Shown: positions 11,712-39,957 of the stretch, piece by piece
Numbering within the stretch: position 1 is the stretch's first letter
Layout of the letters: each line of letters starts with the position of its first letter
From: Polyangiales bacterium
GTDB taxonomy: Bacteria; Myxococcota_A; Polyangia; Polyangiales; Polyangiaceae
Assembly: GCA_038231275.1 (NCBI GenBank)
Contig: JBBRLQ010000010.1
Span: forward strand, 181,993 to 245,992
Length of the DNA stretch: 64,000 nucleotides
Direction: 5' to 3'
Translations under genes and position numbers: made by a program
The notes under the pieces: generated by a model
The model's input: the letters and a program-made list of their open reading frames with translations, nothing else
The model's database searches: none
Told to the model about the DNA's origin: nothing

Positions 11712-13895
11712 TCAATAGGCCTCTCCAATGCCGAAAGCGACGGCCACGGGGATGCCGAACAACGTCGGCGGCAGCCCCTCGGTCGGATCGCTGCGCGCGA
11801 TGGCCTGTTCGTCCGCGAACCCGAGCACCTGCGCGGGCTGGATGCGGTAGCCGATGTCGAGGCGGATCGGGCCGACCGGCGTCTCGTAGCGCGCGCCGAG
11901 GCCGCACGAGAGGTGGAGGTGATTGAGGCGCACGTTCCCGGGGTGCGGCGACACGTCGCTCATGTCGCAGAACGTCGCGGCGTGGAACGGCCCCGCGATC
12001 GCGAAGCGGACCTCGTTCGAGAGCTCCCACAGCGTAAAGCCGCCGATCGAGATCGAGCAGACCGCCGGGTCGGGGCTGAAGTTGTTCGCCGGCGACGGGT
12101 CACAATTGAGGCGAACCTGCTGCGACGCCGTCTGCGGGTTCAGGAACGGCACCACGCCGTGCGGCGCGATTCCGCGAATGGGAAAGCCGCGGTTCGAGGT
12201 GGAGCCGCCGGAGAAGAATCCCCTGAAGAACACCGTCTCGATGTCGCGCACGCGCGCCGCGCGGTTCGCGTCGGTGAGCGGCTCTCCGAGCCGGTTTTGC
12301 ACGACGTCTCCGTAGTTCTGCGAGAGCAAGAACCCGACCGAGGCGCGCGTCGCGAACGTGACCTTCTTCCCGAGCGGGATGTACGTCCGCACCTCCGGCT
12401 GGACCTTCACGTCCCGCGCGTCACCGCCCACGCCGGCGACCTGGACCTCGTTGCCGAGGTAAATCCCCTTGTGCGTATGCACGCGATCGTCACGAAAATC
12501 CAACGACGTCACGAGCGACGGATACGAGATGACGAGCATCTTCAGCGCGGGATCGAGCGCTCCCTTGTAGGCGAATGGCGCCTCTACCTGGACGTTGTGG
12601 CCGAGCGACGCGTAAAACTTCCCGAACGCGCGATCTGCGCCGACGCTGAGTTTGACCTCGGCGTAGCCCACGACCGGATCGTCGGGCAGCGGCGACGTCT
12701 TCACGAGGAGCGGAAAGACGTTGAGCTCGGGGCGAATGAACCCGTGCGTGCGCGCCTCGATGAAGCCCGGCTGCCGCAGCTGTAGCCGGAGCTTCGACTC
12801 GGGCAAGAGGCTGTTCGGCGCGACGAGGTTGTTGATCCGCGTCGGGTAGAGAACGACGCCGGGACGGAACTCGATCGTGAAGTCGCGGAGGCCACCGAGG
12901 AAATTGTGGTCCTCCCACCCGATGAGGCCGTGCAGGTCGGTCTTCAGCTGATCGAACTCGAGACCGCCGCCGAGCCTCCACTCGTGCAGCTGGCTCGGCT
13001 CGACCTTGATGTGGACCGGGACGACGCGCGGCTCCGGCGGCGGATCGGTGAGCACGGGCGCGACGTCGACGGCGCTCAGCACCTCGAGATCGAGCAGCGC
13101 GCGCGTCGCCGACTCGAGGGCGAGGGTCGAGTACGGCGTCCCTTCGGCGATGTCGACCGCGCGGAGGAGCGGCGCCTGGGGCAGCGTGCGCTTGTGGCCG
13201 CCGCTCACCGGAGGGTCGAGGCCCTCGATCGTCACCTTGCCGAAGACGGCGGGCTTGTCGGGGGTCACCGCCATCGACACGTCGGCGGTGTGCCGCACGA
13301 TGTCGACGAAGACGTCGCGGTCGACCTTCGCGTAGGCGTACCCGCGATCGGTCAGCGCCTTGCGCGCGTCCCTCTCGGCGGCCTCGTACTTGTCCTCGTC
13401 GAAGGGCTCGCCAGGCGGCAGCTGCGCCTTCACGGCGGCGGTGACGGCGTCGACGAGAGCGCGGGGCAGTCCATCCATCCCCTGGACTGCGAGGTCGTGG
13501 TTTTTGATCGGCTCGCCCTCTTCGACGATGATCTCGACGTCGACGTGGGCGTCGCTGCCCTCGAAGACGTGGCCCGCACGTGCGTGCGCGTCGTAAAACC
13601 CGCGGGCGCGGTAGAATCGCTCCACGCGCGCGAGGTCGCGCTGAAGGACGTTGTAGTCGTAGAGCCGGTAGTCGAAGGCGACGCCGCGGAAGAGGCCGAA
13701 GAGCTTGGCGCTCGGCGTCGTGGCGAGGACGTCCTCGAGATCCGACGATGCGATGACCTTCGTGCCGCGCAGGGTGACGTCGTCGACCGCGTAGCGACCT
13801 TCCGGGACCTTGGAGCAGCCGAGCGTGGCGACGAGCGCGACGAGGGGGCCGAGCCACGCGCGATCTGCTGTGGCGATCGTGTCGCGTGAGGGCAT
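11712..13895 (-). CDS. tamA: BamA/TamA family outer-membrane protein (POTRA domains + Omp85 barrel)
   Basis: POTRA motifs RFYRARGF and LTDRGYAYA; FFSGG..SNRGF; TPVGPIRLDIG; ends FGIGEAY. Confidence 0.88.
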   Translation of the reverse strand: MPSRDTIATADRAWLGPLVALVATLGCSKVPEGRYAVDDVTLRGTKVIASSDLEDVLATTPSAKLFGLFRGVAFDYRLYDYNVLQRDLARVERFYRARGFYDAHARAGHVFEGSDAHVDVEIIVEEGEPIKNHDLAVQGMDGLPRALVDAVTAAVKAQLPPGEPFDEDKYEAAERDARKALTDRGYAYAKVDRDVFVDIVRHTADVSMAVTPDKPAVFGKVTIEGLDPPVSGGHKRTLPQAPLLRAVDIAEGTPYSTLALESATRALLDLEVLSAVDVAPVLTDPPPEPRVVPVHIKVEPSQLHEWRLGGGLEFDQLKTDLHGLIGWEDHNFLGGLRDFTIEFRPGVVLYPTRINNLVAPNSLLPESKLRLQLRQPGFIEARTHGFIRPELNVFPLLVKTSPLPDDPVVGYAEVKLSVGADRAFGKFYASLGHNVQVEAPFAYKGALDPALKMLVISYPSLVTSLDFRDDRVHTHKGIYLGNEVQVAGVGGDARDVKVQPEVRTYIPLGKKVTFATRASVGFLLSQNYGDVVQNRLGEPLTDANRAARVRDIETVFFRGFFSGGSTSNRGFPIRGIAPHGVVPFLNPQTASQQVRLNCDPSPANNFSPDPAVCSISIGGFTLWELSNEVRFAIAGPFHAATFCDMSDVSPHPGNVRLNHLHLSCGLGARYETPVGPIRLDIGYRIQPAQVLGFADEQAIARSDPTEGLPPTLFGIPVAVAFGIGEAY

Positions 13896-13931
13896 CGCCG
13901 CACACTCCTGCAACGAAGAGACCAGGCCCGG

Positions 13932-13973
13932 CTCATGCGCGCGCCAGGACGTCTCATGCGCGCGCCAGGACGT
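13932..13973. repeat. perfect 21-bp tandem duplication
   Basis: CTCATGCGCGCGCCAGGACGT at 13932-13952 and 13953-13973. Confidence 0.95.
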
Positions 13974-13979
13974 GCAGGT

Positions 13980-13993
13980 GGCACTCGCCGTGC
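13980..13993 (+). promoter_or_regulatory. sigma-54 -24/-12 box
   Basis: TGGCACTCGCCGTGCT. Confidence 0.65.
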
Positions 13994-14005
13994 TAAGTCG
14001 CGGGC

Positions 14006-14482
14006 ATGAGACCGTGGTGGATCGGTGTGGCGGGAGTCCTCGCCGCGCTCGCGTGCAACTCGGGGCTTCCGCATCCGCCCTACGCCGCGCACGCGTCGTC
14101 CGAGCTGACCGAGGTTCCGTTCCCTCCTCCGCCCGCGCGCGTCGAGACGGTGCCGCCGATGCCCGCCTCGGGGGCGCTGTGGATCGAAGGGGAGTGGTCG
14201 TGGCGCGGAAGGAAATGGTCTTGGAAAGAAGGCTATTGGGCCCCATCGTCCGCCACCGGCACGTACTCGCCGTGGCAGACGGTCCGCAACGACGCGGGGA
14301 CGATCTTCTTCGCGCCCGGCACGTGGCGCGACGCCAAGGGACAGCCCGCGCCTCCGCCCGCGCCGCTCGCACTCGCATCGGCGCGAACCACTTCCGTCGT
14401 CGATCCCGAGGGCGAGACCGAGCCCACCGGGCGAAACCTGTCGCCCGACGGCGGGCCGCTGCGAAGGGACGCAGGCCCGTGA
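14006..14482 (+). CDS. lipoprotein with WxxGxW repeats
   Basis: lipobox ALAC; PPPARVE..P, WIEGEW, WKEGYW. Confidence 0.8.
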   Translation: MRPWWIGVAGVLAALACNSGLPHPPYAAHASSELTEVPFPPPPARVETVPPMPASGALWIEGEWSWRGRKWSWKEGYWAPSSATGTYSPWQTVRNDAGTIFFAPGTWRDAKGQPAPPPAPLALASARTTSVVDPEGETEPTGRNLSPDGGPLRRDAGP

Positions 14483-14718
14483 GCGACACGGCCATCTTCC
14501 TCGGGGCCGCGATCCTGTTCGCCATCGCGGTGACCGCGCACGTCGCCATCGCCGCCGGGCTCGCGCTCCGCTCTCCGCGCTGGCGTGGGCTCGTCGCGCT
14601 CGTGGCCCCGCCGCTCGCGCCGTATTGGGCATTCCAGAGCGGCATGCGCGTGCGCGCGACGGCGTGGGTGGGCGCCGTCCTCGCGTACGTCGTGCTGCGC
14701 GCCGTCCTTTGGCGCTGA
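14479..14718 (+). CDS. small membrane protein, 79 aa
   Basis: GTGA overlap with upstream stop; 2-3 hydrophobic segments. Confidence 0.7.
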   Translation: MSDTAIFLGAAILFAIAVTAHVAIAAGLALRSPRWRGLVALVAPPLAPYWAFQSGMRVRATAWVGAVLAYVVLRAVLWR

Positions 14719-15667: not shown

Positions 15668-15786
15668 AATCGATAGGCGCGTGGTGGCGCGAGGAATGCG
15701 CTCCAACCGACGCCTTTCCGCCACCGTGAGGCGCATTTGCGCGCCTGCGCCCGCTCAGCAGCCCATGCATCACGGCAAATATTGCT

Positions 15787-15800
15787 GGCGCGCATGTTGC
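15787..15800 (+). promoter_or_regulatory. sigma-54 -24/-12 box
   Basis: TGGCGCGCATGTTGCT, identical to the box at 27912-27925. Confidence 0.7.
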
Positions 15801-15814
15801 TCAAGGCACGAAAG

Positions 15815-16780
15815 ATGGGCATTCGAAGGCTTCGAGTGGTTGCCGCGGCTTTGTCGAGCGTGTGCTTGCTTCAAACGACCGGCGCGCTCGCGCAGCAGCC
15901 GGCCCCGGCCGCGGACGGCGGGGCTCCAGTCTCGCCGACTACGCAGACTCCGGTGGACCAGATCGCACCGCCAGGACCGGGCGCCGACCCTAAGAAGGTC
16001 GAGGAGGCGAAGGAGATCGCGAAGGTCGCGCAGAACACGCCGATCGTCACGGATCCGAAGAACCCGACGCGTCCCGCGTTCCAGCTCTATGCGGAGCTCG
16101 ACATCCCGGTGCTCGGCATCGGCGCCGTGTTCGCGGCCGCGCGTTTGATCCGCACGCAGCGTGCGTTCTGCGCTCCGCTTTGCGATCCGAACGACCTCAA
16201 CGCGCTCGATCGTACGACCGCTGGCTTTTACAGCACGGGATGGGGCACGGCCTCGGACTTCGGGCTCTACGGTGCCGTCGCAGGCGCCGCGGTGCTCCTC
16301 GCCGGGGACGAAGGGCTCCTCGACGGGCTGAACGACGCCGTCGTCGTCGCGGAGTCCGCGCTCAGCGCAACGGCGGTCTCGACGATGCTGACCCTCGCCG
16401 CGGGACGCCCGCGGCCGCTCCTCTTCGGGACGAACGCTCCTCTGGAACAGCGCGAGAGCGCCGACGCGAGCCTCTCCTTCTTGAGCAGCCACGCGTCGGT
16501 CACCTCTTCGATCGCGATGTCGATGTTCATGACGATGAAGCGGCTTCACCCGACCTCCAGCGGCCCGTACTGGGTCCTCGCTGTGGGCGGTCTCCTCACC
16601 GCCTTCGTCGGCACCGCGCGCGTCATGGCCGGTAAGCATTTCATTACCGACTCGATCGGCGGCGCCATCGTCGGATCGTCGCTCGGCGTCATCGTCCCCG
16701 CCCTTCATCAATCGCCGGTGAGGATCGTCCCCATCGTGAGCGAAAACCAGAAGGGTCTAGGGCTGAGCGGAGCGTTCTGA
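15815..16780 (+). CDS. exported PAP2-family phosphatase
   Basis: signal peptide (ALA/QQ); GRPRP, SFLSSH, RVMAGKHFITD motifs. Confidence 0.85.
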   Translation: MGIRRLRVVAAALSSVCLLQTTGALAQQPAPAADGGAPVSPTTQTPVDQIAPPGPGADPKKVEEAKEIAKVAQNTPIVTDPKNPTRPAFQLYAELDIPVLGIGAVFAAARLIRTQRAFCAPLCDPNDLNALDRTTAGFYSTGWGTASDFGLYGAVAGAAVLLAGDEGLLDGLNDAVVVAESALSATAVSTMLTLAAGRPRPLLFGTNAPLEQRESADASLSFLSSHASVTSSIAMSMFMTMKRLHPTSSGPYWVLAVGGLLTAFVGTARVMAGKHFITDSIGGAIVGSSLGVIVPALHQSPVRIVPIVSENQKGLGLSGAF

Positions 16781-16816: not shown

Positions 16817-17680
16817 CTACTGCGACGCCGTGGCCGTGAAGCTCTTCACGATCTGGAGCGTCTCCGAGATGGGTTCCCCAGGGACCAGCTCGGGGAGATC
16901 GCCGCTCACACCCGCCAAGATGATCGTGATGTTGTCGTCGCCGCCGCGCGCCTTCGCGAGGTCGATGAGGGACGTGCACGCCGCGTCGAGGCGCGTGGAC
17001 GTGAGGATCGTGCGCTGGATCTCCTCCGGCGTGACATGGATCGTGAGGCCGTCGGAGCACAGGAGGAAGCAGTCGCGCTGGCGGAGCTCGAGCTTCCCTA
17101 GCCCGACCTGCACCTCGGGAGACTGCCCCATCGCCTGCAGAATGACGTTCTTGAACGGCGCGCGCGCGGCCTCTTCGGGCTTGATCGCGCCGGTGTCGAT
17201 GAGGAGCTGGATGTAGCTCTGGTCCTTGGTGACCTGTTCGAGGTGGCCGCCGCGTAGCAGGTACGCGCGCGAATCACCGACCTCGGCGATGTGCGCAGTC
17301 CCGCGGTGGACGAAGAGCGCGGTGACGGTCGCGCCCATTCCCGCGCGCTCTGGCGTCTGGGCGGCCTCCCACGTCTCGCGGTTCGCGCGCTCCACCGCGC
17401 GCTCGATGAGGGCGTCGTTGGTCGGCTCCCCCTTCGCCGCCGACATCGCGCGGCGCATCGACTCGACGACGAGCGCGCTCGCGACCTCACCCGCGCGGTG
17501 CCCGCCCATGCCGTCGGAGACGGCGAGAAGAACGCCGCGCTCCCCGATCTCGAACCGCGTGATGGGCGTCGTTTCGACCAGGCTGTCGCCCGTGAGATCG
17601 GCGATGACGAAGGCGTCCTCGTTGGTCTTGCGCTTGAGCCCGATGTCAGTCTGCCCGCACACAGTGAGATTGACGGTCAT
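16817..17680 (-). CDS. PP2C/Stp1-type Ser/Thr protein phosphatase
   Basis: TDIG..R..NED, DGMGGH, GDSRAY, CSDGL, GGDDNIT; SD GGAGG. Confidence 0.93.
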   Translation of the reverse strand: MTVNLTVCGQTDIGLKRKTNEDAFVIADLTGDSLVETTPITRFEIGERGVLLAVSDGMGGHRAGEVASALVVESMRRAMSAAKGEPTNDALIERAVERANRETWEAAQTPERAGMGATVTALFVHRGTAHIAEVGDSRAYLLRGGHLEQVTKDQSYIQLLIDTGAIKPEEAARAPFKNVILQAMGQSPEVQVGLGKLELRQRDCFLLCSDGLTIHVTPEEIQRTILTSTRLDAACTSLIDLAKARGGDDNITIILAGVSGDLPELVPGEPISETLQIVKSFTATASQ

Positions 17681-17716
17681 CGCGTCCTCCATGACATGTT
17701 CATCGAACCTTGAGCT

Positions 17717-17730
17717 GCACGCGTCGGGCC
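17717..17730 (-). promoter_or_regulatory. sigma-54 -24/-12 box
   Basis: TGGCCCGACGCGTGCA. Confidence 0.55.
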
Positions 17731-17831
17731 AGTGCGTCGCTGGGACCTCGAGCGCGAGGCGTCCTTGCTGCGCGGCGCCAGTTCGCCACACGCGGCCCAC
17801 GCCAAGTCGCCGACATTCGCGCGGCATCCGT

Positions 17832-17845
17832 GGTCTCTCGATTGC
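17832..17845 (+). promoter_or_regulatory. sigma-54 -24/-12 box
   Basis: TGGTCTCTCGATTGCA. Confidence 0.55.
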
Positions 17846-17893
17846 AAACGGCACTGGCGGGCGACCATCGCCCCAAGAAAGGTTGAACGACTC

Positions 17894-18298
17894 ATGCGAA
17901 TCCTCATCGGTTTGGGCGGATTGAGTTTGGCCGTCGCGTTGACGGCCGCGTGCGGCCGCGGCGAGGTCAAAGGACCCAACGCGCCCACGATGACGTCGGC
18001 GCACATCGCGACGAACGAGGGCGCGATCGAGCGCATCACGGCGGCGCGCTGCGATCGCGAGGTCGCGTGCAACAACGTCGGCGCCGGCAAGTCGTACGAC
18101 ACGCGCGAGGCCTGCACGAACAAGCTCGGCCACGACAAGCGCGCGGATCTGCGCGCCGAAGAATGCCCGCGCGGCATCAGCGAGCCGGATCTCAATGACT
18201 GCCTCACGGACATCAAGAGCGAGAAGTGCGGCAACCCGCTCGACACGGTCAGCCGTCTCGCGGCGTGCCGCAAAGGCAAGCTCTGCCTCGAGCACTGA
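17894..18298 (+). CDS. Cys-rich lipoprotein, DUF6184-like
   Basis: lipobox TAAC; ARCDREVACNNVG..YDTREAC..C..C..C..C..LC pattern. Confidence 0.7.
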   Translation: MRILIGLGGLSLAVALTAACGRGEVKGPNAPTMTSAHIATNEGAIERITAARCDREVACNNVGAGKSYDTREACTNKLGHDKRADLRAEECPRGISEPDLNDCLTDIKSEKCGNPLDTVSRLAACRKGKLCLEH

Positions 18299-18371: not shown

Positions 18372-20123
18372 TCAGAACGCGAACTCGACGCCGATGGAGG
18401 TTCGGTACTGCGGGTACGCGAACGGCGCGCCCGTCAAGTGCGGCACGGGCACGGCGATGCCGAGTGCGTCGAAGATGACGTAGACCGCCGAAGAAAGCTT
18501 CCACTCGACACCGAGCGGCACGAGCCCCGCGAAGATGCCCACGCTCCCGCGCGGCGCGCCGTAGAGATCGATGAGGAGCACGGACGTGCCCAGGCTCGCG
18601 GTCGAGCGGAGGTTCACGGCCTCGAAGCGCAGCGGCGTTCGAAAGATCACCGTGCCGTAGCCGTTGAAGGCGCCCGTGCGGAAGGTGCTCGTGTGGACGC
18701 CGTACCAACCGTTCACCTCGCCGTCGAGGCCGATCGTCCAGCGGTCCGAGAGCTTGAAACGCACGCCGAGCTGGGGGCTGAGCGCTGGATCGGTGATGCT
18801 CCCAGAGACGGCGGCGTAGAGGCCGAAGAACGACCTTCGCTCCTTCTCGATCGCGACGATCTCGGACTTTCGCTCGCTCTTCGTCGGGACGCCGACCTTT
18901 TCGTCCGGCTTCGTCGGGTCGGCGATCGTGCCCGGCGCAGGCGTGGTGGGCGCGGTGGATGTCGAATGAGGCGCCGGTTGCGCGTCGGTCGGCGCGTCCG
19001 AGCCGCTCGGCTGCGCGCGCGCGACGCCAGGGAGGGCGAAGAGTCCGAGCGCGGCGACGACCGCGGCCGCGCGACGACGACGCCTGCGCGCGAGAAACAT
19101 CGCGCCGAACGCGAACGAGCCGATCGCGAGCGCCCCGCCCGAGCGCGAGCCGATCGCGGAGCAGCCACAGCCGGCCGCCACCTGGTACTGCCGCTCGGGC
19201 GCGTCGCACCACCCGTTGTCGAACGTGCAACCCGGCTCGTAGCTGACGTATTTCTCGAGCAGCGCGTCGACCGCGGCGACCTTCGCCGCGCGCGTGAGCT
19301 TTGGGTCGAGGGTCGCCTCGAGGAGATCGACGGACGCCTGCGTGGCGGTGTCGATGTTCTGCGTCTGCAGAGAGTCGAGGTTGTTGCACTGGTCCATGCC
19401 GTTGCGATGCACCGGCCCGTCGCGCGACTCGACTTCGTTCTTGTTCACGTACTCGATCCAGTTGAGGACGGTGCGTACCTTCATGCGGTCGGGGCTCCGA
19501 AAGGTGTGGGAAAAGCTGTCCTGGAGCGTGTGCATCGCTTTGCCTATTTCCAGCCAGAAGGTGGGGAGCGACGCGGTGACGGAGCCGCGGAGCTCCAGGC
19601 TGACGTCGACGTTCGAGCGGTGCCCCGGGTCGGGGATGCCGCTCGCGTCGAGCCCGTCGAGCGCGGCAGCCACGCGCTCGCGGATGAAGGCCTTGCAGTC
19701 CTCGAGCGCGCGCGGGCTGCCGGTCGGCTCGTCCTCGTCGATGGCGCGGAGGCAGTGCTCGCGTTGGCCCGCAGGATTCCCGTGGATCTCAGCGAGCTGA
19801 TCGACCTGAGTGGGGCCGCGCCCCTTCAGATCGTTGTCGCGTACGCCGATCGTGAGCGTCGCGCCGGTCAGGTCCTTCATGTCGCCGTCGAGCGAGTAGG
19901 GGACGTCTTTGATGAGCCCGGTGTCGCCGGTGTCCGCGGCGATGGCGGCCGCGGGGATGGGAAGCTTGGTGCGCACCGCGCGCAGCGCAGTCATCGCGAT
20001 GCGCTCGTGGCAACCCACGGAGATGGCGCTCTCGTACGAGTACGCCCCCGCGGGCGACGCTGCCGCGAATACCAGCGCCGTCGTAGCCGCCCCTGCCGTC
20101 AGGATCCGTCGCTTCCGTGTCAT
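18372..20123 (-). CDS. exported multi-module protein: Zn phospholipase C/P1-nuclease-like domain, internal MYXO-CTERM-like segment, second signal peptide, small OM beta-barrel
   Basis: signal AGA/Y; CHERI, GVRDND, REHCLR, GKAMHTLQDSFSH; GCGC-TM-RRRRRR-h region-ARA/Q; alternating beta strands ending IGVEFAF. Confidence 0.75.
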   Translation of the reverse strand: MTRKRRILTAGAATTALVFAAASPAGAYSYESAISVGCHERIAMTALRAVRTKLPIPAAAIAADTGDTGLIKDVPYSLDGDMKDLTGATLTIGVRDNDLKGRGPTQVDQLAEIHGNPAGQREHCLRAIDEDEPTGSPRALEDCKAFIRERVAAALDGLDASGIPDPGHRSNVDVSLELRGSVTASLPTFWLEIGKAMHTLQDSFSHTFRSPDRMKVRTVLNWIEYVNKNEVESRDGPVHRNGMDQCNNLDSLQTQNIDTATQASVDLLEATLDPKLTRAAKVAAVDALLEKYVSYEPGCTFDNGWCDAPERQYQVAAGCGCSAIGSRSGGALAIGSFAFGAMFLARRRRRRAAAVVAALGLFALPGVARAQPSGSDAPTDAQPAPHSTSTAPTTPAPGTIADPTKPDEKVGVPTKSERKSEIVAIEKERRSFFGLYAAVSGSITDPALSPQLGVRFKLSDRWTIGLDGEVNGWYGVHTSTFRTGAFNGYGTVIFRTPLRFEAVNLRSTASLGTSVLLIDLYGAPRGSVGIFAGLVPLGVEWKLSSAVYVIFDALGIAVPVPHLTGAPFAYPQYRTSIGVEFAF

Positions 20124-20140
20124 GCCCGCGCTCACTTTCT

Positions 20141-21424
20141 TCAATCCCCGCTCACGTGATGAGAGACGGCGTAGGCCGGCGCCGCGCCGGGTACGGCGGC
20201 AGGCGCCGTGGTCGCCGCGTGCCCGCGGCAGTGCTCGAGGTACGCCCCCTCGTGAAGAGCCACGAGATCGACGACCGCCGCCCAGAGCCATGCCGGCGCG
20301 GTAGAGCGCGGCGCATGCTCGCGGCGAAATGCCTCGAGCCACTCTGCGCACTGCGCCGACGTCAGCTGTTGCGCGTGCGCGATCGCGATGACCGAGCCGA
20401 GGCACGTGCTGACGTCGTCGACGTCGGCGTCGGCCATCGCGTCGAGCTCGAACTTGATGTCCTGCGGCAAGAGCTCGCGGACGAAGACCGGCTTTTTCAT
20501 CACGGTCGCGGCGATCATGCGCGTGCCGAGGTACGGGGAGAGCGCGCGCGCTCCCGCCACGACGCGCTCTCCGTCGTGCGACGGCAGGGTGGCGCCCCTT
20601 CCGCGCGGCGCGAGCGGCTTCCGTCCCTGCTTCACGTCGACGAGCGCCAACGTGCCGCCCCTTTTTCCCTTGACGTGGCCTCCGACGCGCACGAGCACGG
20701 CGACGCGCCAAAGCCCGAGCGAGCTGCACCCCTTCACCCAGTACGCGGCGTCGACGAACGTGACCGGGTCGTGATTCTTGCGGCTGGTCAAGCTCGTGAC
20801 GAGCTTGCGGAAGCGCGGTTTTTCGACCAGTTTTGCGATCGCCGCGTGCTCCTCGTCGGTGAGCGGCCAGAATTTCTTGCCGATGGGAATGGCGCTCGCG
20901 CCGTCGCCGACGCGCTCGCTCAGGAGGTCCTTGCGCGTGCGGTTGCCTGCTGCGCGGAGGAGGCGCGTCACCTGGACGGGTGGGGGCCTCGTCACGAATT
21001 TGCGCCGAGCCGCCTTGGCCTCGAGGACGGTCTCGTACCCGCGCGCGATTTTCTCGACCGCGCGGAGTGTCGTCGCGCCCGGGAGCCCCGAAGCGCGCAC
21101 CGCCATCGCCATCGAGAGCGCGAGGCGCACGACGTCGTGCGCGGGCGATCCCACCACGGTCTGATCAAAATCCCGGAGCTGGAGCTCGATGGCGCCGTCG
21201 ATGCGCCCCACCGCTCCCATGTTACCGAGGTGAGAGTCGCCGCTGATCCAGATGATCGGCGCCTTCGGCAACGACGCGCCGCGGCTGCTCTCGAGCCACT
21301 CGTAGAACCGCTTGGTCGAGCCGCGGACGTACGCGTGCGCGCTCGACGTCATCTTCGCCTCGCGTCGAGCGTGGAGCAGCGGCGCGCGCTCCTCGGGCGA
21401 AATGGGGACTCGAAAGTTGGTCAT
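20141..21424 (-). CDS. DUF2252 family protein (kinase-like fold)
   Basis: KMTSSAHAYVRGS, WISGDSHLGN, LRDFDQ, VKGCSSLG, RELLPQD. Confidence 0.85.
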   Translation of the reverse strand: MTNFRVPISPEERAPLLHARREAKMTSSAHAYVRGSTKRFYEWLESSRGASLPKAPIIWISGDSHLGNMGAVGRIDGAIELQLRDFDQTVVGSPAHDVVRLALSMAMAVRASGLPGATTLRAVEKIARGYETVLEAKAARRKFVTRPPPVQVTRLLRAAGNRTRKDLLSERVGDGASAIPIGKKFWPLTDEEHAAIAKLVEKPRFRKLVTSLTSRKNHDPVTFVDAAYWVKGCSSLGLWRVAVLVRVGGHVKGKRGGTLALVDVKQGRKPLAPRGRGATLPSHDGERVVAGARALSPYLGTRMIAATVMKKPVFVRELLPQDIKFELDAMADADVDDVSTCLGSVIAIAHAQQLTSAQCAEWLEAFRREHAPRSTAPAWLWAAVVDLVALHEGAYLEHCRGHAATTAPAAVPGAAPAYAVSHHVSGD

Positions 21425-21437
21425 GGCAGGCTAAGTC

Positions 21438-22850
21438 TCACGCCGCCACGGTCGAGGGGCGCGACGAGTGGTTGTCCGCAGCAGGCGGCGTCGAGCGCGG
21501 TCCCGCTTCGGCGCGCGCGCGATGCAGGACCCCGATCCTCCAGATGACGAGGAGCCACCCGACGACGAGCACGAGGTTCACGGCGATGAAGTGCACGGTC
21601 GCGAAGCCGAGCGCAGTGCCGACCATCGTGATCCCGGCCGACAGAAAGTCGCCGCAGCGGACGATGAACGCGTCGATGACGCTCTTCGCCTTGTACTTCT
21701 CGTCGCGCGACGTCGGAAGCCACAGGGCCTGGCGCGCGGTGTTCTGGAGTGAATAATCGAGCGTATTTTCCGAGATTTTTACCGCGAAGATGATCCCGAG
21801 GAGCGGAAAGAAGAGCGCCGTGCCGTACCCCAGGAGCGAAATCGCCGGCGCGACGAACAGCGCGACGCGTACGCCCGCGTACTTGATGATGCGCGACACC
21901 GCGAAGAGCTGGAGCACGACCGTCGCGGCGTTGACGATGAGGAAGTAGTTCGCCTTGAACTCGCCGATGTACTCCTCGCGAAACGTGTGGGCGTCGGCGC
22001 CGGCCGGGAGGATGTCCTTGACGTGCTGGACGAGCGTGCGGTCCAAGATGTACTCGCCGTTCGTGTTCGCACAGTTGAGGAGGAAGGCGAGCCCGGCGAG
22101 CAGCAAGAGGTAGCGATCGGCCAGGAGGAGCGCGAAGCCGCCCTTCTTGCCGAGCGGGGCGTCCGAGTCGGGCGTGGCGTCCTTCGCCTCGGCCCCTGCA
22201 GCCCCTGCGACCGGGCGCGCGTGCGTCTCGCGCGCGTGGACGACGCGGAGCACCAGCATTGACGCGACCAGGAACGCCGCCGCCGCGAGCATGAGCCCGT
22301 AGATGCCGATCGGGTGGATCAGCCTACGCGAGAGCAGGGCGCCGAAGACCGCCCCGACCGTGCTCCCGATGCCGAGGATGGCGAAGAGCCGCTTCCCCTG
22401 CGCGTCCGTGTACACGTCGGCCGCGAAGCTCCAGAACTGCGCGACGATCATCACGTTGAAGACGCCGACCCACAAGAAGAACGGAATCCCGATCTTCACG
22501 TGCGCCGCGTGCAGGCCGAAGAAGACGAACAGGTTCGACGCGAAGACGAGGGTGACGGCGGTGATGAGCCGCATGCGGCCCATGCGCTGCGCGACCTTGC
22601 CGTAGAGGAACGTGACGGGGATGAGCAGCAGGGCTTGCCCCGCCGACGAGTAGCTCTTTAGCTCCGCGCCGCTCTCCAAGATGAGCGGCTCGCGTGCCGT
22701 CTTGAGCAAGTAGTACGACGTCAGCAAGAGGAAGACGCTGACGGTCATCAGCAGCGCGGAGACGCCCTCGCCGGGCTGCGTATCTGCGAAGAGGCTGAGC
22801 ACGCGCTCGAGGGGGCTCTTCTTCTTCGCGGGTTCTTGGTCGCTCGGCAT
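21438..22850 (-). CDS. Npt1/TLC-family (ATP/ADP translocase-like) nucleotide transporter
   Basis: YYLLKTARE, QFWSFAADVY...QGKRLF, DYSLQNTARQALWLP...KYKAK..ID; about 12 TM segments. Confidence 0.85.
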   Translation of the reverse strand: MPSDQEPAKKKSPLERVLSLFADTQPGEGVSALLMTVSVFLLLTSYYLLKTAREPLILESGAELKSYSSAGQALLLIPVTFLYGKVAQRMGRMRLITAVTLVFASNLFVFFGLHAAHVKIGIPFFLWVGVFNVMIVAQFWSFAADVYTDAQGKRLFAILGIGSTVGAVFGALLSRRLIHPIGIYGLMLAAAAFLVASMLVLRVVHARETHARPVAGAAGAEAKDATPDSDAPLGKKGGFALLLADRYLLLLAGLAFLLNCANTNGEYILDRTLVQHVKDILPAGADAHTFREEYIGEFKANYFLIVNAATVVLQLFAVSRIIKYAGVRVALFVAPAISLLGYGTALFFPLLGIIFAVKISENTLDYSLQNTARQALWLPTSRDEKYKAKSVIDAFIVRCGDFLSAGITMVGTALGFATVHFIAVNLVLVVGWLLVIWRIGVLHRARAEAGPRSTPPAADNHSSRPSTVAA

Positions 22851-22865
22851 CTCGCGCGAGTCAAA

Positions 22866-22879
22866 GCAGCTTCCGCGCC
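22866..22879 (-). promoter_or_regulatory. sigma-54 -24/-12 box
   Basis: TGGCGCGGAAGCTGCT. Confidence 0.65.
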
Positions 22880-22904
22880 ACGGTCCCGCCGTCGGCCGAT
22901 TCCC

Positions 22905-22918
22905 GGCACGTGCCGTGC
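22905..22918 (+). promoter_or_regulatory. sigma-54 -24/-12 box
   Basis: CGGCACGTGCCGTGCT. Confidence 0.6.
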
Positions 22919-23037
22919 TGAAGGGCGATGCACGCGCCCGGTGGGGTGCGTTTGACGGGCTCCCGCCGGCATCGGCGCCACACACGCACACGAAACCCAC
23001 ACGCCAAATGCCCTTATTTTCCCTCCCGACTCGCCAC

Positions 23038-24468
23038 ATGCGCAAAATTTGTCGATCTGTGGCGGTCCTGTGCGCGCTGCTCGCGCCCGCCGCGGCACGC
23101 GCGGAGGACGAAGAACCGCACGAGGACGTCGAAGAAGAGTCGCCCCCGACAGAGCCTCTAGATAAGGATGCGAAGGATGCGCCGCCTGTCGCGACGATCA
23201 CCGCGAAGCGGCCCGTGCCCGACTACGACGGCAGGGGTGACGAACCGACGACGACGGGTGACGTGCTCTTGTGGGTGCCGCGCATCCTGGTGCTGCCCAT
23301 CTACCTGGCGACCGAGTACCTGATCCGACGGCCCTTCGGCGCCATCCTCACCGCGATCGAGGCGAATCGCATCGTCCAGCGCACCCTCTTTTTCATCACG
23401 TTCGGCGGCAACAAGAACATCGGCCTCGTCCCGACCTTCTTCGTCGACTTCGGCGTCCTGCCCAGCGTCGGCGGGTACTTCTTTTGGGACGACGCGCTCT
23501 TCAAGCACAACCACGTGCGCGTGCACGCAGGGACGTGGGGGCCCGACTGGCTCAGCCTCTCGGTCGCCGATCGCATCGACGTCGGCGACCGCTCGACGAT
23601 GTCCCTCCGCGGCTCGTGGTCCAAGCGCGCCGACTACCCGTTCTTCGGACTCGGGCCGGACTCCAAGCAGGAGAACGAGTCGCGGTACCGGGCGACGATG
23701 CTCGACGTCGGGCCGGCGTACGATCTGCGCGTCACGCCGCACGTGAGCTTCGCCGCGGCGGTCGGAGTTCGCGACACGTCGTTCGCCGAGGGGAGTTGCT
23801 GCGGCGACCCCACGGTTCAAGAGCGGGTGCGCGCGGGACAACTCACGCTGCCGCCGCGCTTCCTCGACGGCTACACGCTCGGCTACCAGAGCGCCTCCGT
23901 CGCGTTCGACACGCGCAACCCGCGGCCCGCGTCGCAGAGCGGTGTGCGCGTCGTGCTCGACGGTCAGCCCGCGTTCGACTTCTCACGAAAGCCTGGAAAT
24001 TCATGGGTTCGGTACGGCGCGACGGCCGGCGGATTCTGGGACGTGACCGGGAAGGCGCGCGTCTTGAGCCTCACCTTCGCAAGCATGTTCGTCGATCCGC
24101 TCTCGGGCTCGGGGAGCGACATCCCGTTCAACGAGCAGGTGTCCCTCGGCGGCACCAACTTCATGCGCGGCTTCCTGCCGGGACGCATGATCGATCGCAG
24201 CGCCGCCGTCGCGACCGTCGCCTACCAGTGGCCCATCTGGGTCTTCCTCGACGGGACGATGCACGTGGCCACCGGCAACGTCTTCGGCGCCGGCCTCCAG
24301 GGCTTGGAGCCCGGCAAGCTGCGGCTCTCGTCCGGCATCGGGCTTCGCACCAACTCGTCGCCGGATCATCAGTTCGAGATCTTGGCGGGCTTCGGAACCG
24401 ACACGTTCGACAACGGCGCGAAGGTCAACTCCTTCCGCCTCGCCTTCGGAGCAACCCGTGGATTCTAA
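23038..24468 (+). CDS. Omp85 (BamA/TamA-like) beta-barrel protein with no recognisable POTRA domains
   Basis: signal ARA/E; LGGTNFMRGF (loop-6 VRGF-like), SSGIGLR, ends F. Confidence 0.8.
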   Translation: MRKICRSVAVLCALLAPAAARAEDEEPHEDVEEESPPTEPLDKDAKDAPPVATITAKRPVPDYDGRGDEPTTTGDVLLWVPRILVLPIYLATEYLIRRPFGAILTAIEANRIVQRTLFFITFGGNKNIGLVPTFFVDFGVLPSVGGYFFWDDALFKHNHVRVHAGTWGPDWLSLSVADRIDVGDRSTMSLRGSWSKRADYPFFGLGPDSKQENESRYRATMLDVGPAYDLRVTPHVSFAAAVGVRDTSFAEGSCCGDPTVQERVRAGQLTLPPRFLDGYTLGYQSASVAFDTRNPRPASQSGVRVVLDGQPAFDFSRKPGNSWVRYGATAGGFWDVTGKARVLSLTFASMFVDPLSGSGSDIPFNEQVSLGGTNFMRGFLPGRMIDRSAAVATVAYQWPIWVFLDGTMHVATGNVFGAGLQGLEPGKLRLSSGIGLRTNSSPDHQFEILAGFGTDTFDNGAKVNSFRLAFGATRGF

Positions 24469-26212
24469 GACGCTCCTCTCACAGACGGCCCTCCTCGCGG
24501 CGGCGTACGTGCTCGTCGGCTGCTCCTCCGGGAGCGTTCGGCGATATCCGCTCCGCGATGTTCTCTCGGTCGACGACGACACCCGCCCGTACGCGGTCGA
24601 TTGCCGCATGGTCCAGAAGGACAAGAAGAAAAAGCCGCACCCGGTGTGCACGCCGGAGGAGTACGAGTCGCCGTTCGTTTGGGACGGCATCAACAACATG
24701 ACCCTCCGGCCGATTGCCCGCTTCTTCGCGGTCGACCCCGGCGGCGAGTCGGTGAACGTGAACGCCGTCGACGAGGTCCCCGACTCGAGCTGGTTCACGA
24801 ATCGAATCGGCGTGCACCCGATGACCCCTCACGAGGTCGGAGAGGGGGCGTGCGACGAAAAGCGCCTCGACGTCGACGGCCCCGACGGGTCATGGGTCAT
24901 CGATCAAGGCAAGGAGAACGGCGCAAATCCGGGCTTTCGCGTGAACGTTCCGGGGGTCGGCAAATTCCTCCTCAAGGCCGACGAGACCGATCACCCCGAG
25001 CGCGCGACCGGCGCCACCGCGATCGCGACGCGCTTCTACAATGCGGCCGGGTACTGGACCGGCTGCGACACGGTGCTCTACGTGCGCCGCTCGATCCTGG
25101 CGCTGACGCCGGGGCTCAAGTACAGCGACAACACCGGCGTCTCGCGCAAGTTCGGCACCAAGCAGCTCGAGAAGGTGCTCTCGGGCGCCGCGCGGCACGG
25201 CGAGCTCTATCGGCTCGTCGCCTCGAAGTGGCTGCCGGGCGCGACGCTCGGGCCGTTCCGCTACGAGGGCACGCTCAAGGAGGATCCGAACGACGTCGTG
25301 GCCCACGAGGACCGTCGCGAGCTCCGCGGGCAGCGACTCCTCGCGGCGTGGCTCAACCACTTCGACTCGCGCGAGCAGAACTCGATGAACACGTGGGTCG
25401 CGGTGAACGCGAAGAAGCCGGACTCCTCGCCCGGCTACATCCGCCACTGGATCATCGATCTCAACGATTGCTTCGGCAGCGAGTGGGCGTGGGATGGGCT
25501 GTCGAAGCGCATCAACTTCTCCTACTACTTCGACGGCGGCGACATCCTCCAGGACTTCGTGACGCTCGGCATCCCCGAACGGCCGTGGGACAAGATCCAG
25601 CGCAGCGAAGAGGGGGACATCTTCGGGTACTTCGAGGCGGAGCAGTTCGAGGCGGAAGGCTGGAAGCCCGGCTACCAAAACCCCGCTTTTTCTCGGATGT
25701 CCGAGCGCGACGGGGCGTGGATGGCGCGCATCCTCGCGCGCTTCTCGCCGGCTCACGTCGAGGCCGCGGTCGGCGTCGGAAAGTACACGCAGCCCAAGCA
25801 TCGCGACTACCTCGTGCGGACGCTGCTGGCGCGGCAGCACAAGATCCTCGTCCGCTATTTCTCCAAGGTTTCGCCGCTCGCCGACCTCGCGGTGAAGGGG
25901 GCGGAGCTGTGCGCGACGGATCTCGCACGCGCGACGGAGACGTTTCCGGCCTCGGCGTTCCGCTACACGGCGACGTGGCGCTGGGGAGAGTCGCTCGAGC
26001 ACATCGCGAGCATGGGAGTGCGGGCGGAGGAAGGCGGGCGGGTGTGCGTGCAGCTTCCCCGTCTCGGAGCCGACGGCGTCGCGGCCGACGACGCGGGAAG
26101 CCGCTACGTGGAGGTCGAGCTGCGCAACGGTCAATCGGAGCGCCCGATCCGCGCGTACCTCTACGATCTCGGACCGACGCGCGGCCATCGCCTCGTGGGG
26201 GTCGAGCGATGA
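24458..26212 (+). CDS. lipoprotein with atypical (HipA/PI4K/CotH-like) kinase fold
   Basis: lipobox LVGC; GKENGANPGF, FLLKAD, WLNHFDSREQN, IIDLNDCFG; overlaps both neighbours. Confidence 0.7.
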   Translation: MDSKTLLSQTALLAAAYVLVGCSSGSVRRYPLRDVLSVDDDTRPYAVDCRMVQKDKKKKPHPVCTPEEYESPFVWDGINNMTLRPIARFFAVDPGGESVNVNAVDEVPDSSWFTNRIGVHPMTPHEVGEGACDEKRLDVDGPDGSWVIDQGKENGANPGFRVNVPGVGKFLLKADETDHPERATGATAIATRFYNAAGYWTGCDTVLYVRRSILALTPGLKYSDNTGVSRKFGTKQLEKVLSGAARHGELYRLVASKWLPGATLGPFRYEGTLKEDPNDVVAHEDRRELRGQRLLAAWLNHFDSREQNSMNTWVAVNAKKPDSSPGYIRHWIIDLNDCFGSEWAWDGLSKRINFSYYFDGGDILQDFVTLGIPERPWDKIQRSEEGDIFGYFEAEQFEAEGWKPGYQNPAFSRMSERDGAWMARILARFSPAHVEAAVGVGKYTQPKHRDYLVRTLLARQHKILVRYFSKVSPLADLAVKGAELCATDLARATETFPASAFRYTATWRWGESLEHIASMGVRAEEGGRVCVQLPRLGADGVAADDAGSRYVEVELRNGQSERPIRAYLYDLGPTRGHRLVGVER

Positions 26213-27123
26213 GGGCCTCGGTCGTCCTCTCCGGCCTCGTCGCCTTCGCCGCGCTCGGCACCTCGCCGTCGCCCGCGCGCGCCGATCAGCAGAAGGAGGT
26301 GAAGTGGAGCGACGACTGGCCACGCGTCCACATCCTCGAGGTCGCCGACATCGCCGCGCTGACCGTCGGCTCGATCCTCATCAACGGCACGCCGACCTCC
26401 GACCACGCGAAGTGGAGCAAGCCCATCCTCTTCGACAACGCCGCTCGCAATTTCTTCAAGTCGAACAACGCGCACACGCAGGAGCTCGCGGGAAACTGGA
26501 GCGACGACCTCTACCACGGCATGGTGATCGCTCCGTACCTCATCGACAACTACATCGTCGCGCTCGGCGTGCACCAGAACGCCGACGTCGCGCTGCAGAT
26601 GACGCTCATCGACCTCCAGTCGCTCGGCCTGAGCGGCGTGATGAGCCTCGGCGCCGAGCACGCCGTCGGTCGCGCGCGCCCGTACGTCCAGGACTGCGCG
26701 ACCCCGACGTCGGCGGACAAGGTCGGCTTCAATCACTGCGGCACCCCCGGCGACTTCGAGAGCTTCTACAGTGGCCACGCCGCCGCCACGTTCACGATGG
26801 CGGGGCTCACGTGCGCGCACCACCAGCACTTGCCGCTCTGGGGCGGCGGGTTCGCCGACGCGATCGCGTGCTTCGGCATGGTCGGGCTCGCCGCGACCAC
26901 GAGCGTGCTGCGAATGATGGTCGATCGTCACTGGGCATCCGACGTCATCACGGGCGTCAGCGTCGGCATCCTCAACGGGTACGTCCTCCCGACGTGGCTC
27001 CACTATGGGTTCGGCAGTTCGAAACCGGTCCCGACCGTCATGAAGACCTCGTTCGGGTACGTCGCGCCGATCCCGCAGGTGTACCCGGGCGGCGGTGGGC
27101 TCGGCGTCGCCGGCTCCTTCTGA
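26209..27123 (+). CDS. exported PAP2-family phosphatase
   Basis: signal ARA/D; GRARP, SFYSGH, RMMVDRHWASD; ATGA overlap. Confidence 0.87.
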   Translation: MRASVVLSGLVAFAALGTSPSPARADQQKEVKWSDDWPRVHILEVADIAALTVGSILINGTPTSDHAKWSKPILFDNAARNFFKSNNAHTQELAGNWSDDLYHGMVIAPYLIDNYIVALGVHQNADVALQMTLIDLQSLGLSGVMSLGAEHAVGRARPYVQDCATPTSADKVGFNHCGTPGDFESFYSGHAAATFTMAGLTCAHHQHLPLWGGGFADAIACFGMVGLAATTSVLRMMVDRHWASDVITGVSVGILNGYVLPTWLHYGFGSSKPVPTVMKTSFGYVAPIPQVYPGGGGLGVAGSF

Positions 27124-27207: not shown

Positions 27208-27867
27208 CTACTTCGCGATCTCGAGCTGATCGTCGACCTCGGTGACGCCGCCCATCTGCTTCGCGTAGGTCTCGATGATCATCTTCTCCTGCTCGCTCTT
27301 CACGGGGCCGCGCAGGGTCACCTTGGAGCCGACGGTGATGATCTTCACGTTCTTCGCGCCGAACGAAAGCGCCTTGTCGGAGACGACGCGCTTGCGGATC
27401 TCCGCGGTGATCTTGCGCTCGCCCTCGCTCTTGCCCTGATCCATCGGGGTCAGGCTCGCGTCGTGGCGGTCGCGCTGGTTCACGCGGGTGTTGTCGGCGC
27501 CCTTGGTGCCGTCGGTCGGACCAGGATTGTTGGTGACGCCAGGCGCGGCCGGCGGCGTCGCGCCAGGCGGCGGGTTCGCGGGCGCCGTCGTGTCGTTCAT
27601 CGCCGGCTTGCTGCCGGTCGTCGCACGGATCCGCGTGCCGGACGTGTCGGTGCTCGGGTAAACCGTCGAGCTCGTCGACGGGTCGTTCATCGGCGTGGAC
27701 GACGTCATGGGCGTGGTCGACGCGGGGCTCGGCGTCACCGGGACCTCGTTCGCCCGCGCCGACGTCGTCTGTGCCTCGTACGAGCTTTGTGCAGGCTTGT
27801 CGGAGCTACCGCATGCGACGGCGGCGAGGCTAGACGCACAGAACATCAGGGCGAGTCGCTTGTTCAT
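27208..27867 (-). CDS. BON-domain lipoprotein (OsmY-like)
   Basis: lipobox AVAC; low-complexity linker; NVKIIT..KVTLRGPV..V..VDDQLEI. Confidence 0.9.
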   Translation of the reverse strand: MNKRLALMFCASSLAAVACGSSDKPAQSSYEAQTTSARANEVPVTPSPASTTPMTSSTPMNDPSTSSTVYPSTDTSGTRIRATTGSKPAMNDTTAPANPPPGATPPAAPGVTNNPGPTDGTKGADNTRVNQRDRHDASLTPMDQGKSEGERKITAEIRKRVVSDKALSFGAKNVKIITVGSKVTLRGPVKSEQEKMIIETYAKQMGGVTEVDDQLEIAK

Positions 27868-30812: not shown

Positions 30813-31235
30813 ATGAACAGCAGAACCATTCTCATCGTCGTCACGAGCGCGGCCGCACTCGTCGCGTGCGGCGAGGGCCCCGCGCCGCGCGCGCGTAGCG
30901 CGACCACACAGACGACCTCCGCGTCGTCGGACGACGTCGGCTCGATGAGCCCCACCCCGGCCACGGGCGCCGTGTCGGGCCCTGCCGACGTCATGCGACC
31001 AGACCCGGGACGCACGACGTTCGAGCGACGCATCACCGCGGACATCCAGCGTCGGCTCCTCACGGACGACGCGCTGTCGGCGACCGCGAAGAACGTGGAG
31101 ATCGTCACGGTGGGTCGGAAGGTCTACCTGCGCGGCGAAGTGAGGACGGAAGAAGAAAAAGCGAGGATCGAAGGCCACGTGCGCAGCGCCATGGGCGTCA
31201 CCGAGGTCGACGATCGACTCGAAGTCGTGAAGTGA
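30813..31235 (+). CDS. BON-domain lipoprotein
   Basis: lipobox LVAC; NVEIVT..KVYLRGEV..GVTEVDDRLEV; SD GAGGAG. Confidence 0.88.
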   Translation: MNSRTILIVVTSAAALVACGEGPAPRARSATTQTTSASSDDVGSMSPTPATGAVSGPADVMRPDPGRTTFERRITADIQRRLLTDDALSATAKNVEIVTVGRKVYLRGEVRTEEEKARIEGHVRSAMGVTEVDDRLEVVK

Positions 31236-35542: not shown

Positions 35543-35792
35543 TGTGGCGCCCGAATGGTCGGGAAGGACAGCAGACTCGCTCGATTGGGCCACGACGGGA
35601 TCTCCACCTGCACGTCCGGCGCCAGCTGACGAGAGCTTCGCGCTCCGTTGGCGTACTGGTGCGGACGTAGACGCCACGCGACCGCAACGTTGCCACGCGC
35701 CACGGCCGGGTGTGGCGTCCTTGACCAGGGCGACTGCTTTTCGACCGCACGAAGTCGCGGTGAACCGTGGCGGGAACGGCGTTCAGCTGGTC

Positions 35793-35806
35793 GGCACGCG
35801 GGCTGC
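35793..35806 (+). promoter_or_regulatory. sigma-54 -24/-12 box
   Basis: CGGCACGCGGGCTGCT. Confidence 0.6.
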
Positions 35807-35889
35807 TATTGCCGAGGCCGAGGACCCACCACAACCCGGCCGCACCCAACGTTGCAGTTGCGACGCTGCGCGGCCGTCGCCAGGAGCCG

Positions 35890-39957
<4,068 letters not shown>

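Follow-up and report, generated by a model that had tools for sequence, protein, structure and literature searches.

Can a kinase work with ATP in the bacterial periplasm and, if so, what would supply the nucleotide? The question is raised by six genes, A to F, at positions 18372-27123 of a 64,000-nucleotide (nt) stretch of DNA from a Polyangiales bacterium (contig JBBRLQ010000010.1, positions 181,993 to 245,992; hereafter the window), which the initial annotation had read as a candidate extracytoplasmic phosphorylation system. We find that E is an exported lipoprotein with a kinase fold and a conserved catalytic set, that a POTRA-less Omp85 barrel (D) is almost always encoded beside it, and that NTT/TLC-type carriers (C and C2 in the window) are frequent neighbors. 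These carriers may pass ATP into the periplasm for the barrel-docked kinase, a full chain that we hold to be plausible, if just short of probable. The host is a soil or sediment myxobacterium with an assembly of 9.28 Mb in 164 contigs; the guanine-plus-cytosine (GC) content of the window is ~68%, and the names carried by relatives of its proteins are Sorangium, Labilithrix and Polyangiaceae (Polyangia). Genes A-F were defined from a listing of open reading frames (ORFs) together with start mapping, and their families were called with Pfam and NCBIfam. The ORF listing and the start mapping agree on six co-located genes at the positions given earlier, and the coordinates likewise agree with the gaps between C and B (13 nt) and between B and A (17 nt) and with the overlaps of D with E (11 nt) and of E with F (4 nt). 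The genes and the region between C and D are as follows.

A: 18372-20123, minus strand, 583-amino acid (aa) exported protein with no Pfam or NCBIfam family.
B: 20141-21424, minus strand, DUF2252 protein (Pfam E-value 2.9e-63).
C: 21438-22850, minus strand, 470-aa NTT/TLC-type carrier (Pfam TLC 40 bits, cut-off 21; plus MFS_1).
Divergent C/D intergenic region: 22851-23037, two proposed sigma-54 boxes and the palindrome GGCACGTGCC.
D: 23038-24468, plus strand, Omp85 barrel (Pfam 38.1 bits, cut-off 24; E-value 1.7e-9), no POTRA.
E: 24458-26212, plus strand, 584-aa lipoprotein with an atypical kinase-like domain; no Pfam or NCBIfam family.
F: 26209-27123, plus strand, membrane PAP2 phosphatase or phosphotransferase (Pfam 52.6 bits, cut-off 27.2).
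C2: 28062-30242, minus strand, second NTT-type carrier, long, of the NTT-HEAT subfamily, about 726 aa, lying 1 kb past F.

E has a lipobox (LVGC, Cys22), a kinase-like domain at residues ~130-471 and a C-terminal Ig/FN3-like beta-sandwich at residues 472-584, and is present as a single copy in the genome. Searches by sequence gave no Pfam or NCBIfam match at an E-value ≤ 0.1; against the PDB, the single protein (phmmer) matched only translin (E-value 2.4) and no kinase, and a profile reached a best E-value of 0.28, again with no solved kinase. This absence of a family model or of a PDB kinase match by sequence makes E a sequence family of its own within the kinase fold. At least 6,309 proteins are related to it at an E-value ≤ 0.001 among 8,000 scored candidates, with 2,375 representatives of 50%-identity clusters; among the matches listed, none carries a Pfam domain or a name other than "hypothetical," and the labeled ones include Marinimicrobia and a cluster commonest in Acidobacteriota. 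Two of the relatives are fusions, one of E to an Omp85 barrel (P0163, 1000 aa) and one of E to PAP2 (P0169, 837 aa).

The initial annotation had made its reading depend on a fold of the HipA/PI4K/CotH/Fam20 type, and such a fold is found in the AlphaFold2 model of E, built from 41 sequences (predicted local distance difference test, pLDDT, 83.8; predicted template modeling score, pTM, 0.86). A Foldseek search with this model returned actin-fragmin kinase as the best match (E-value 8e-5), then Fam20A/C, PI4KIIalpha, CtkA and HipT, and structural re-alignment gave Z scores of 14.2 for CtkA (234 residues, root-mean-square deviation, rmsd, 4.0), 12.6 for PI4KIIalpha, 12.4 for CotH, 11.9 for Fam20C, 11.2 for actin-fragmin kinase and 11 for HipT. 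A second fold search, independent of Foldseek, compared the model all-against-all with 48,161 PDB representatives. Here, 15 chains reached Z ≥ 8; 14 are atypical kinases and the fifteenth matches the Ig-like domain (residues 472-584). CtkA again came first (Z 13.6, 227 residues, rmsd 3.9), with CotH at 12.4, PI4KIIalpha at 12.2, Fam20 at 12.2 and 11.9, actin-fragmin kinase at 11.3, HipA/HipT at 10.6-11.0 and MavQ at 10.5. In the model, three strands ending at K173 (the last at 168-173) are followed by a helix; another helix (287-299) precedes the NHFDSREQN loop, after which come strands 309-315 and 326-332 and then IIDLNDCFG. This predicted order of secondary-structure elements, with the places of the motifs in it, fits the kinase order, and the four motifs first noted in the sequence are confirmed at residues 151 (Gly loop), 170 (beta-3 Lys), 300 (catalytic loop) and 332 (metal-binding).

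Conservation was measured over 50 relatives with 29-54% identity to E. The catalytic residues are kept almost throughout (K173 and D303 in 47/50 each, N308 and G340 in 48/50 each, D334 in 49/50), and the lipobox Cys22 is kept in 46/49, which makes a cytoplasmic location, named beforehand as fatal to the reading, unlikely. Cysteine frequencies are paired as well, at 33 and 32 of 50 for Cys132/Cys203 and at 38 and 38 for Cys485/Cys530, as expected if these residues behave as disulfide pairs. E is thus established as an exported kinase-fold lipoprotein with a conserved catalytic set. Given that this set is kept in full, E is most likely an active ATP-dependent phosphotransferase in the periplasm.

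D, the gene that overlaps E on its upstream side, had been described as an Omp85 barrel without recognizable POTRA domains, and this description holds: D matches Pfam Omp85 and no POTRA family, and in its AlphaFold2 model (pLDDT 86.3) a signal peptide and a disordered stretch come before helices at 73-109 and 112-120 and then 16 strands, with no POTRA domain and a long helix in the POTRA place. Loop 6 (residues 355-387, between strands 11 and 12) is long and bears an RGF motif at 377-379, and the model matches the BamA, TamA and Sam50 barrels with a Foldseek E-value of about 1e-10 and a probability of 1.00. D has no close paralogue in the genome, which holds a separate POTRA-bearing BamA-like gene at 11712-14645 of the window.

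We then predicted the complex of D (residues 57-476) with E (residues 23-584) in three runs alongside three controls. The runs scored 0.77, 0.77 and 0.79, the best control 0.00, and the D-E score passes a mark that is reached by 116 of 157 solved complexes and by 2 of 215 mismatched pairs. At least 95% of the contacts are shared between runs, and the pLDDT of the partner is at least 86. The contact residues of D (57-109, 297, 337-341, 396-408 and 436) correspond on the strand map to the N-terminal helix region and to turns 8/9, 10/11, 12/13 and 14/15. As this is the face opposite loop 6, it would be the periplasmic face, and the prediction supports a binding of E to the periplasmic rim of D, held by the N-terminal helix of D. 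So docked, E would sit where the POTRA domains sit in BamA. The barrel had been proposed to serve as a channel or scaffold; the predicted complex favors the scaffold.

To follow these genes across genomes, we used three sets of E loci: the 78 best genome loci, all Polyangia-like (sample 1); 45 loci from an even draw of 301 Myxococcota genomes over the phylum, 35 of which are E-positive (sample 2); and 78 metagenome loci with GC contents of 0.40-0.72, retrieved with an alignment of distant relatives that has a Marinimicrobia protein at its head (sample 3). In tblastn searches with the window proteins, D was found near E in 54/78 loci of sample 1 and 36/45 of sample 2, C in 47/78 and 23/45, and F in 22/78 and 10/45. 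A uniform scan with hidden Markov models (HMMs) was restricted to well-flanked loci, that is, those with at least 5 kb on either side of E, and counted an NTT when it lay within 9 kb. It gave D in 39, any NTT in 40 and F in 19 of 53 such loci in sample 1; D in 33, any NTT in 21 and F in 8 of 34 in sample 2; and D in 13, any NTT in 10 and F in none of 13 in sample 3. Long carriers are present in 24/53, 12/34 and 7/13 of the well-flanked loci in samples 1, 2 and 3, respectively. In 32/78, 36/45 and 61/78 loci of the three samples, D is the gene immediately upstream of E and shares its strand, and the order and orientation of the carriers differ from one E locus to the next. With six NTT-like genes in 9.3 Mb, chance proximity to E would be of the order of 1%. 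By hand count, a C-like carrier at an E-value ≤ 1e-40 is present in 28/35 E-positive and 28/266 E-negative genomes, figures on which kinship inflates any statistic. A conserved linkage of E with a POTRA-less barrel and with NTT/TLC carriers, on which the initial annotation had also staked its case, is thus found across genomes and phyla: we consider it established that a POTRA-less Omp85 partner is almost always adjacent to E and that the NTT link is frequent and resistant to rearrangement. The locus L014 of the cultivable Sorangium cellulosum So ce56 contains E, D and C. In five metagenome loci (L149, L159, L174, L186 and L210), the barrel-kinase pair or one of its genes is duplicated in tandem on a single contig, for instance as D-E ... 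D-E-C in L149 and as E-E in L210.

C is a single-domain carrier of the MFS fold. Alone, it matched the PDB weakly (9j3n, E-value 3.3e-4), and a profile of 27 C-type carriers gave E-values of 2.4e-32 for 9j3n (over positions 6-446 of 449) and 1e-26 for 9j3j; besides these two ATP/ADP carriers, no PDB chain reached an E-value ≤ 0.01. The assignment of C to the Npt/TLC-type transporters is therefore upheld, both by Pfam TLC above its cut-off and by the near full-length profile match, and by these sequence comparisons C is a true but divergent NTT. C2 matches MFS_1 and TLC (3.5e-5) and scores 638 bits against an HMM of the long NTT-HEAT carriers from E loci; a HEAT_2 domain is found in relatives of such C2-type long carriers. 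Many E loci elsewhere have a long HEAT-repeat carrier, often followed by a gene for a cyclic nucleotide monophosphate (cNMP)-binding protein, and in the window C2 has no adjacent gene of this kind. According to the available text of PMC5381601, the role of NTTs in free-living bacteria is unknown.

The same carrier subfamily occurs in a second context. E-negative genomes with a C-like carrier supplied 16 loci for inspection, and none of B, D, E or F was found in them. Nine of these loci have an exported Beta-lactamase2-like gene after the carrier, and the facing operon consists of a second Beta-lactamase2-like gene and a gene for a ~980-aa PEP-utilizers/PPDK_N (ATP-grasp) protein (four-gene neighborhood at L134:6998-13605; likewise in L135, L136, L139, L141, L142, L143, L147 and L148). 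The ~980-aa PPDK-type family has at least 3,617 members at an E-value ≤ 0.001 among 8,000 candidates, and 109 of 120 listed relatives show a hydrophobic, signal-like N terminus ahead of the conserved mature start, so that the protein appears to be an exported, ATP-using, extracytoplasmic dikinase.

Based on these observations, we propose that the conserved unit is a two-protein outer-membrane complex of the POTRA-less barrel D and the kinase-fold lipoprotein E, in which E would rest on the periplasmic rim of D, held by the N-terminal helix of D, and would phosphorylate something with ATP in the periplasm. The NTT/TLC-type carriers C and C2 of the inner membrane are the most likely suppliers of this ATP; they would work in the outward direction, with cytoplasmic ATP leaving against periplasmic ADP or AMP plus phosphate. 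The substrate of E may be an envelope lipid or glycolipid, which we slightly favor because of the PAP2 neighbors, the one PAP2 fusion and the lipid kinases among the best fold matches; alternatively, E may act on a protein or a glycan that the barrel handles. In loci with PAP2 (F), this enzyme could remove the phosphate or pass it on. In this model, we infer that E acts as a kinase, that ATP is what the carriers move and in which direction, what E modifies and what PAP2 does. More tentatively still, we suggest as a possibility of wider reach that NTT carriers energize the periplasm of free-living diderms by ATP export, fueling at least two unrelated exported phosphotransferase families, namely the barrel-docked kinase lipoprotein and the PPDK-type ATP-grasp dikinase.

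Several points weigh against ATP supply by the carriers. A kinase fold does not equal kinase chemistry, as SelO- and SidJ-type enzymes use the fold differently. C scores 39 bits on TIGR00769, the model of canonical nucleoside triphosphate/nucleoside diphosphate exchangers, against a cut-off of 387, so that its substrate could differ. The linkage is incomplete: 13 of the 34 well-flanked E loci in the Myxococcota sample have no NTT within 9 kb, 7 of the 35 E-positive genomes have no C-like carrier at an E-value ≤ 1e-40, and 28 genomes hold the carrier without E. Inspection, made without a Pfam scan, found no E-, D- or dikinase-type gene at the four other NTT paralogue loci of the genome. In the carrier tree, the dikinase-linked carriers form one clade among the E-linked ones, so that the dikinase link counts as a single further association, and 7 of the 16 carrier-only loci show no shared neighbor. 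The carrier is also found with no recognizable exported ATP enzyme. The two fusion proteins are a single metagenome gene call each and could be frame errors. Finally, every characterized NTT imports nucleotides (PMC5381601, available text), and ATP export by an NTT would be a new direction of transport.

Three other explanations can be set against the same data. The complex of D and E might be a device for outer-membrane assembly or transport, with the kinase-fold lipoprotein standing in for POTRA domains as periplasmic receptor or scaffold, or putting its fold to non-kinase or ATP-independent chemistry; the NTT genes would then be neighbors on regulatory or metabolic grounds that have nothing to do with feeding it. 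D does belong to the Omp85 insertase/translocase superfamily while lacking POTRA domains, E is predicted to bind exactly at the POTRA place, the link to NTTs is much less regular than the D-E pairing (21/34 versus 33/34), and the periplasm is generally held to be without ATP (PMC7432876, in its available text). Such a device would, however, leave the conservation of the ATP-binding and catalytic residues of E unexplained, as well as the linkage of an NTT in 62-77% of well-flanked loci in three samples, which persists despite rearrangements and lies far above chance; we consider it unlikely, if still a serious contender. Alternatively, the genes could serve nucleotide uptake or salvage in the canonical NTT direction, the barrel admitting nucleotides (for example from lysed prey), the lipoprotein binding or processing them and the NTTs importing them. 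Myxobacteria lyse prey, a kinase fold binds nucleotides, and a trio of barrel, lipoprotein and carrier, with D and E predicted to bind each other, spans both membranes. The uniform import by the characterized NTTs (PMC5381601, available text) fits this explanation as well. Yet a mere nucleotide binder would have no need to keep the catalytic Asp and Asn and the metal-binding Asp, as 47-49 of 50 relatives do, the PAP2 neighbors and the PAP2 fusion are left without a role, and the pairing of the same carriers with an exported ATP-grasp dikinase, in loci that have no barrel, suits supply better than uptake. Moreover, we know of no Omp85 barrel that acts as a solute channel, and we regard uptake as improbable.

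Inherited synteny alone, with six window genes doing unrelated jobs, would account for gene order shared by descent among related genomes and for B and A, which are unrelated passengers. It does not account for a D-E adjacency and an NTT proximity that persist, with changing order and strand, across Myxococcota families and distant metagenome lineages of GC 0.40-0.72, nor for the existence of fused proteins and of a complex prediction that passes its controls, and we give it very little credence. We retain ATP supply to a barrel-docked kinase as the working model.

The remaining genes of the cluster are less constant. F has the PAP2 motifs SGH (residue 188) and R-x5-H-x3-D (residue 235, RMMVDRHWASD), and its first motif reads E-x6-RP, where K-x6-RP is usual. 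Its place in the proposed system stands in part: the PAP2 domain and motifs are present as described, but PAP2 is only an occasional partner of E (19/53, 8/34 and 0/13 well-flanked loci). The inclusion of the leftward genes B and A did not hold, and both were rejected as system members on linkage: by tblastn, B lies near E in 7/78 loci of sample 1 and 0/45 of sample 2, and A in 1/78 (its C-terminal part only) and 0/45. B is cytoplasmic, without a signal peptide, and DUF2252 belongs to the Pfam PKinase clan with its lobes swapped; it is a local or occasional accessory outside the core. In seven loci (L021, L025, L026, L029, L030, L033 and L035), we observed a variant layout with no barrel nearby, in the order NTT-HEAT, cNMP-binding protein, short NTT, DUF2252, PAP2, an exported 290-aa protein of no family, and E; L030 lacks the short NTT by tblastn. 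The window itself aside, DUF2252 recurs only in this layout. In some loci, E has Ser/Thr protein kinases in its vicinity (cluster X3); these belong to a family with many paralogues in the genomes concerned and were set aside as probable chance neighbors.

A had been labeled a Zn-hydrolase, a label that we dropped, as Pfam and NCBIfam give no support for it and a language-model lead to Zn-dependent phospholipase C (0.77) stands alone. The nearest cluster is that of a 383-aa Myxococcota hypothetical protein (0.96). The gene is one open frame encoding a signal peptide and a ~290-aa domain, then, from residue 318, a GCGCS...RRRRRR stretch with a hydrophobic segment between, which resembles a MYXO-CTERM sorting tail, and after it a second signal-like stretch and a small part at the C terminus that looks like a beta-barrel and has F as its last residue. 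Of these parts, tblastn finds only the last in the closest relative (L002). The single frame could have arisen by fusion or by loss of a stop codon, or the gene may have an internal start.

Between C and D, back-to-back sigma-54 promoters had been proposed at 22866-22880 (minus strand) and 22904-22918 (plus strand), each with two mismatches to TGGCAC-N5-TTGC. Matches of this quality number 64 in the window against 47.9 ± 7.4 expected, or ~1 per kb, so that the two boxes carry no weight; nor are they visibly conserved, as the intergenic region of L002 does not align over them. We therefore discarded the sigma-54 promoters. A scan for sigma-70 sites and terminators found no sigma-70-like site in the C/D intergenic region. 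A perfect 10-base palindrome, GGCACGTGCC, lies at 22905-22914 in this region, overlapping the rightward box, and could be a candidate operator. Envelope genes are abundant around the locus: besides the POTRA-bearing BamA-like protein (11712-14645), there are a second PAP2 (15737-16780), a PP2C phosphatase (16817-18295) and two BON-domain lipoproteins (27208-27867 and 30813-31235). Farther on, 35767-39957 (plus strand) encodes a 1,396-aa hybrid with CheB methylesterase, CheR methyltransferase, PAS, histidine kinase and receiver domains.

How does the barrel-kinase-carrier set compare with known systems? In mechanism, the closest parallel is with the eukaryotic secretory pathway, in which secretory kinases (the Golgi casein kinase Fam20C, and Fam20B) share with E a kinase fold outside the cytosol (E versus Fam20, Z 11.9-12.2), and which shares with our proposal a dedicated nucleotide carrier feeding the compartment. 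In eukaryotes, the ATP importer of the endoplasmic reticulum and Golgi is SLC35B1/AXER. Unlike the secretory kinases, to which it has no detectable sequence relation, E would belong to the periplasm, with a lipid anchor, a predicted docking to an Omp85 barrel and a carrier of the NTT type. Among the atypical kinases, CtkA/HipA, CotH, PI4KIIalpha and MavQ resemble E over ~220-245 residues (Z 10.5-14.2), including the D-x4-N of the catalytic loop and a downstream metal-binding Asp; they differ in their 7-14% identity and the absence of a Pfam match on the side of E, and E adds N-terminal and Ig-like domains and a lipid anchor. These kinases act in the cytosol, the spore-forming mother cell or the host cell.

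C is a full-length homologue of the NTT/TLC carriers (Transporter Classification 2.A.12, PF03219; 9j3n, 9j3j), from which it differs by its high divergence, its free-living host with a 9.3-Mb genome and the proposed export. C2 and the long carriers of E loci resemble the NTT-HEAT carriers that precede a gene for cyclic-nucleotide binding (Major, Embley and Williams 2017, PMC5381601), for which the available text of that paper gives no function and no link to an exported kinase or to Omp85; C2, in contrast, lacks the cNMP-binding neighbor. D resembles BamA and TamA, as presented in the available text of PMC4104836 and PMC11358297, in its 16 strands, its RGF loop 6 and its predicted periplasmic lipoprotein partner, whereas it lacks POTRA domains, is a single-copy extra paralogue, and has in E a partner of kinase fold unrelated to BamB-E. 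It fits the "noNterm" class of Omp85 proteins outlined in the available part of PMC4104836, being POTRA-less with helices before strand 1. LpxT, in the available account of PMC2229476, likewise transfers phosphate to an envelope lipid on the periplasmic side and involves an enzyme of the PAP2 family; its donor, however, is undecaprenyl pyrophosphate, with no ATP, whereas here the proposed donor is ATP and PAP2 is accessory only. A survey of kinase-like domains (bioRxiv 10.64898/2026.09.18.752743, in its available part) has a PAP2-linked, lipid-kinase-like module that its authors class as intracellular, and which is distinct from the barrel-kinase-carrier set. Our literature search, with most subscription journals outside its reach, found no description of a barrel-kinase-NTT module. 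The system thus appears to be without a described counterpart in bacteria, with E as a new kinase-fold family and a new kind of Omp85 partner.

The envelope biology of Gram-negative bacteria assumes an ATP-free periplasm, an assumption that accounts for Lol, Lpt, TonB and BAM either drawing their power from the inner membrane or having no power source. An apparently active periplasmic kinase beside homologues of ATP/ADP carriers makes this assumption directly testable. The available text of PMC7432876, a review, describes the route by which ATP would reach the periplasm as unknown and adds that no homologue of the ATP/ADP translocase is known from Gram-negative bacteria. The module described here suggests such a route, and it offers a function for the NTTs of free-living bacteria, which the available text of PMC5381601 leaves unexplained. 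If true, NTT export fueling two exported enzyme families would overturn the rule that there is no ATP-driven enzymology in the periplasm.

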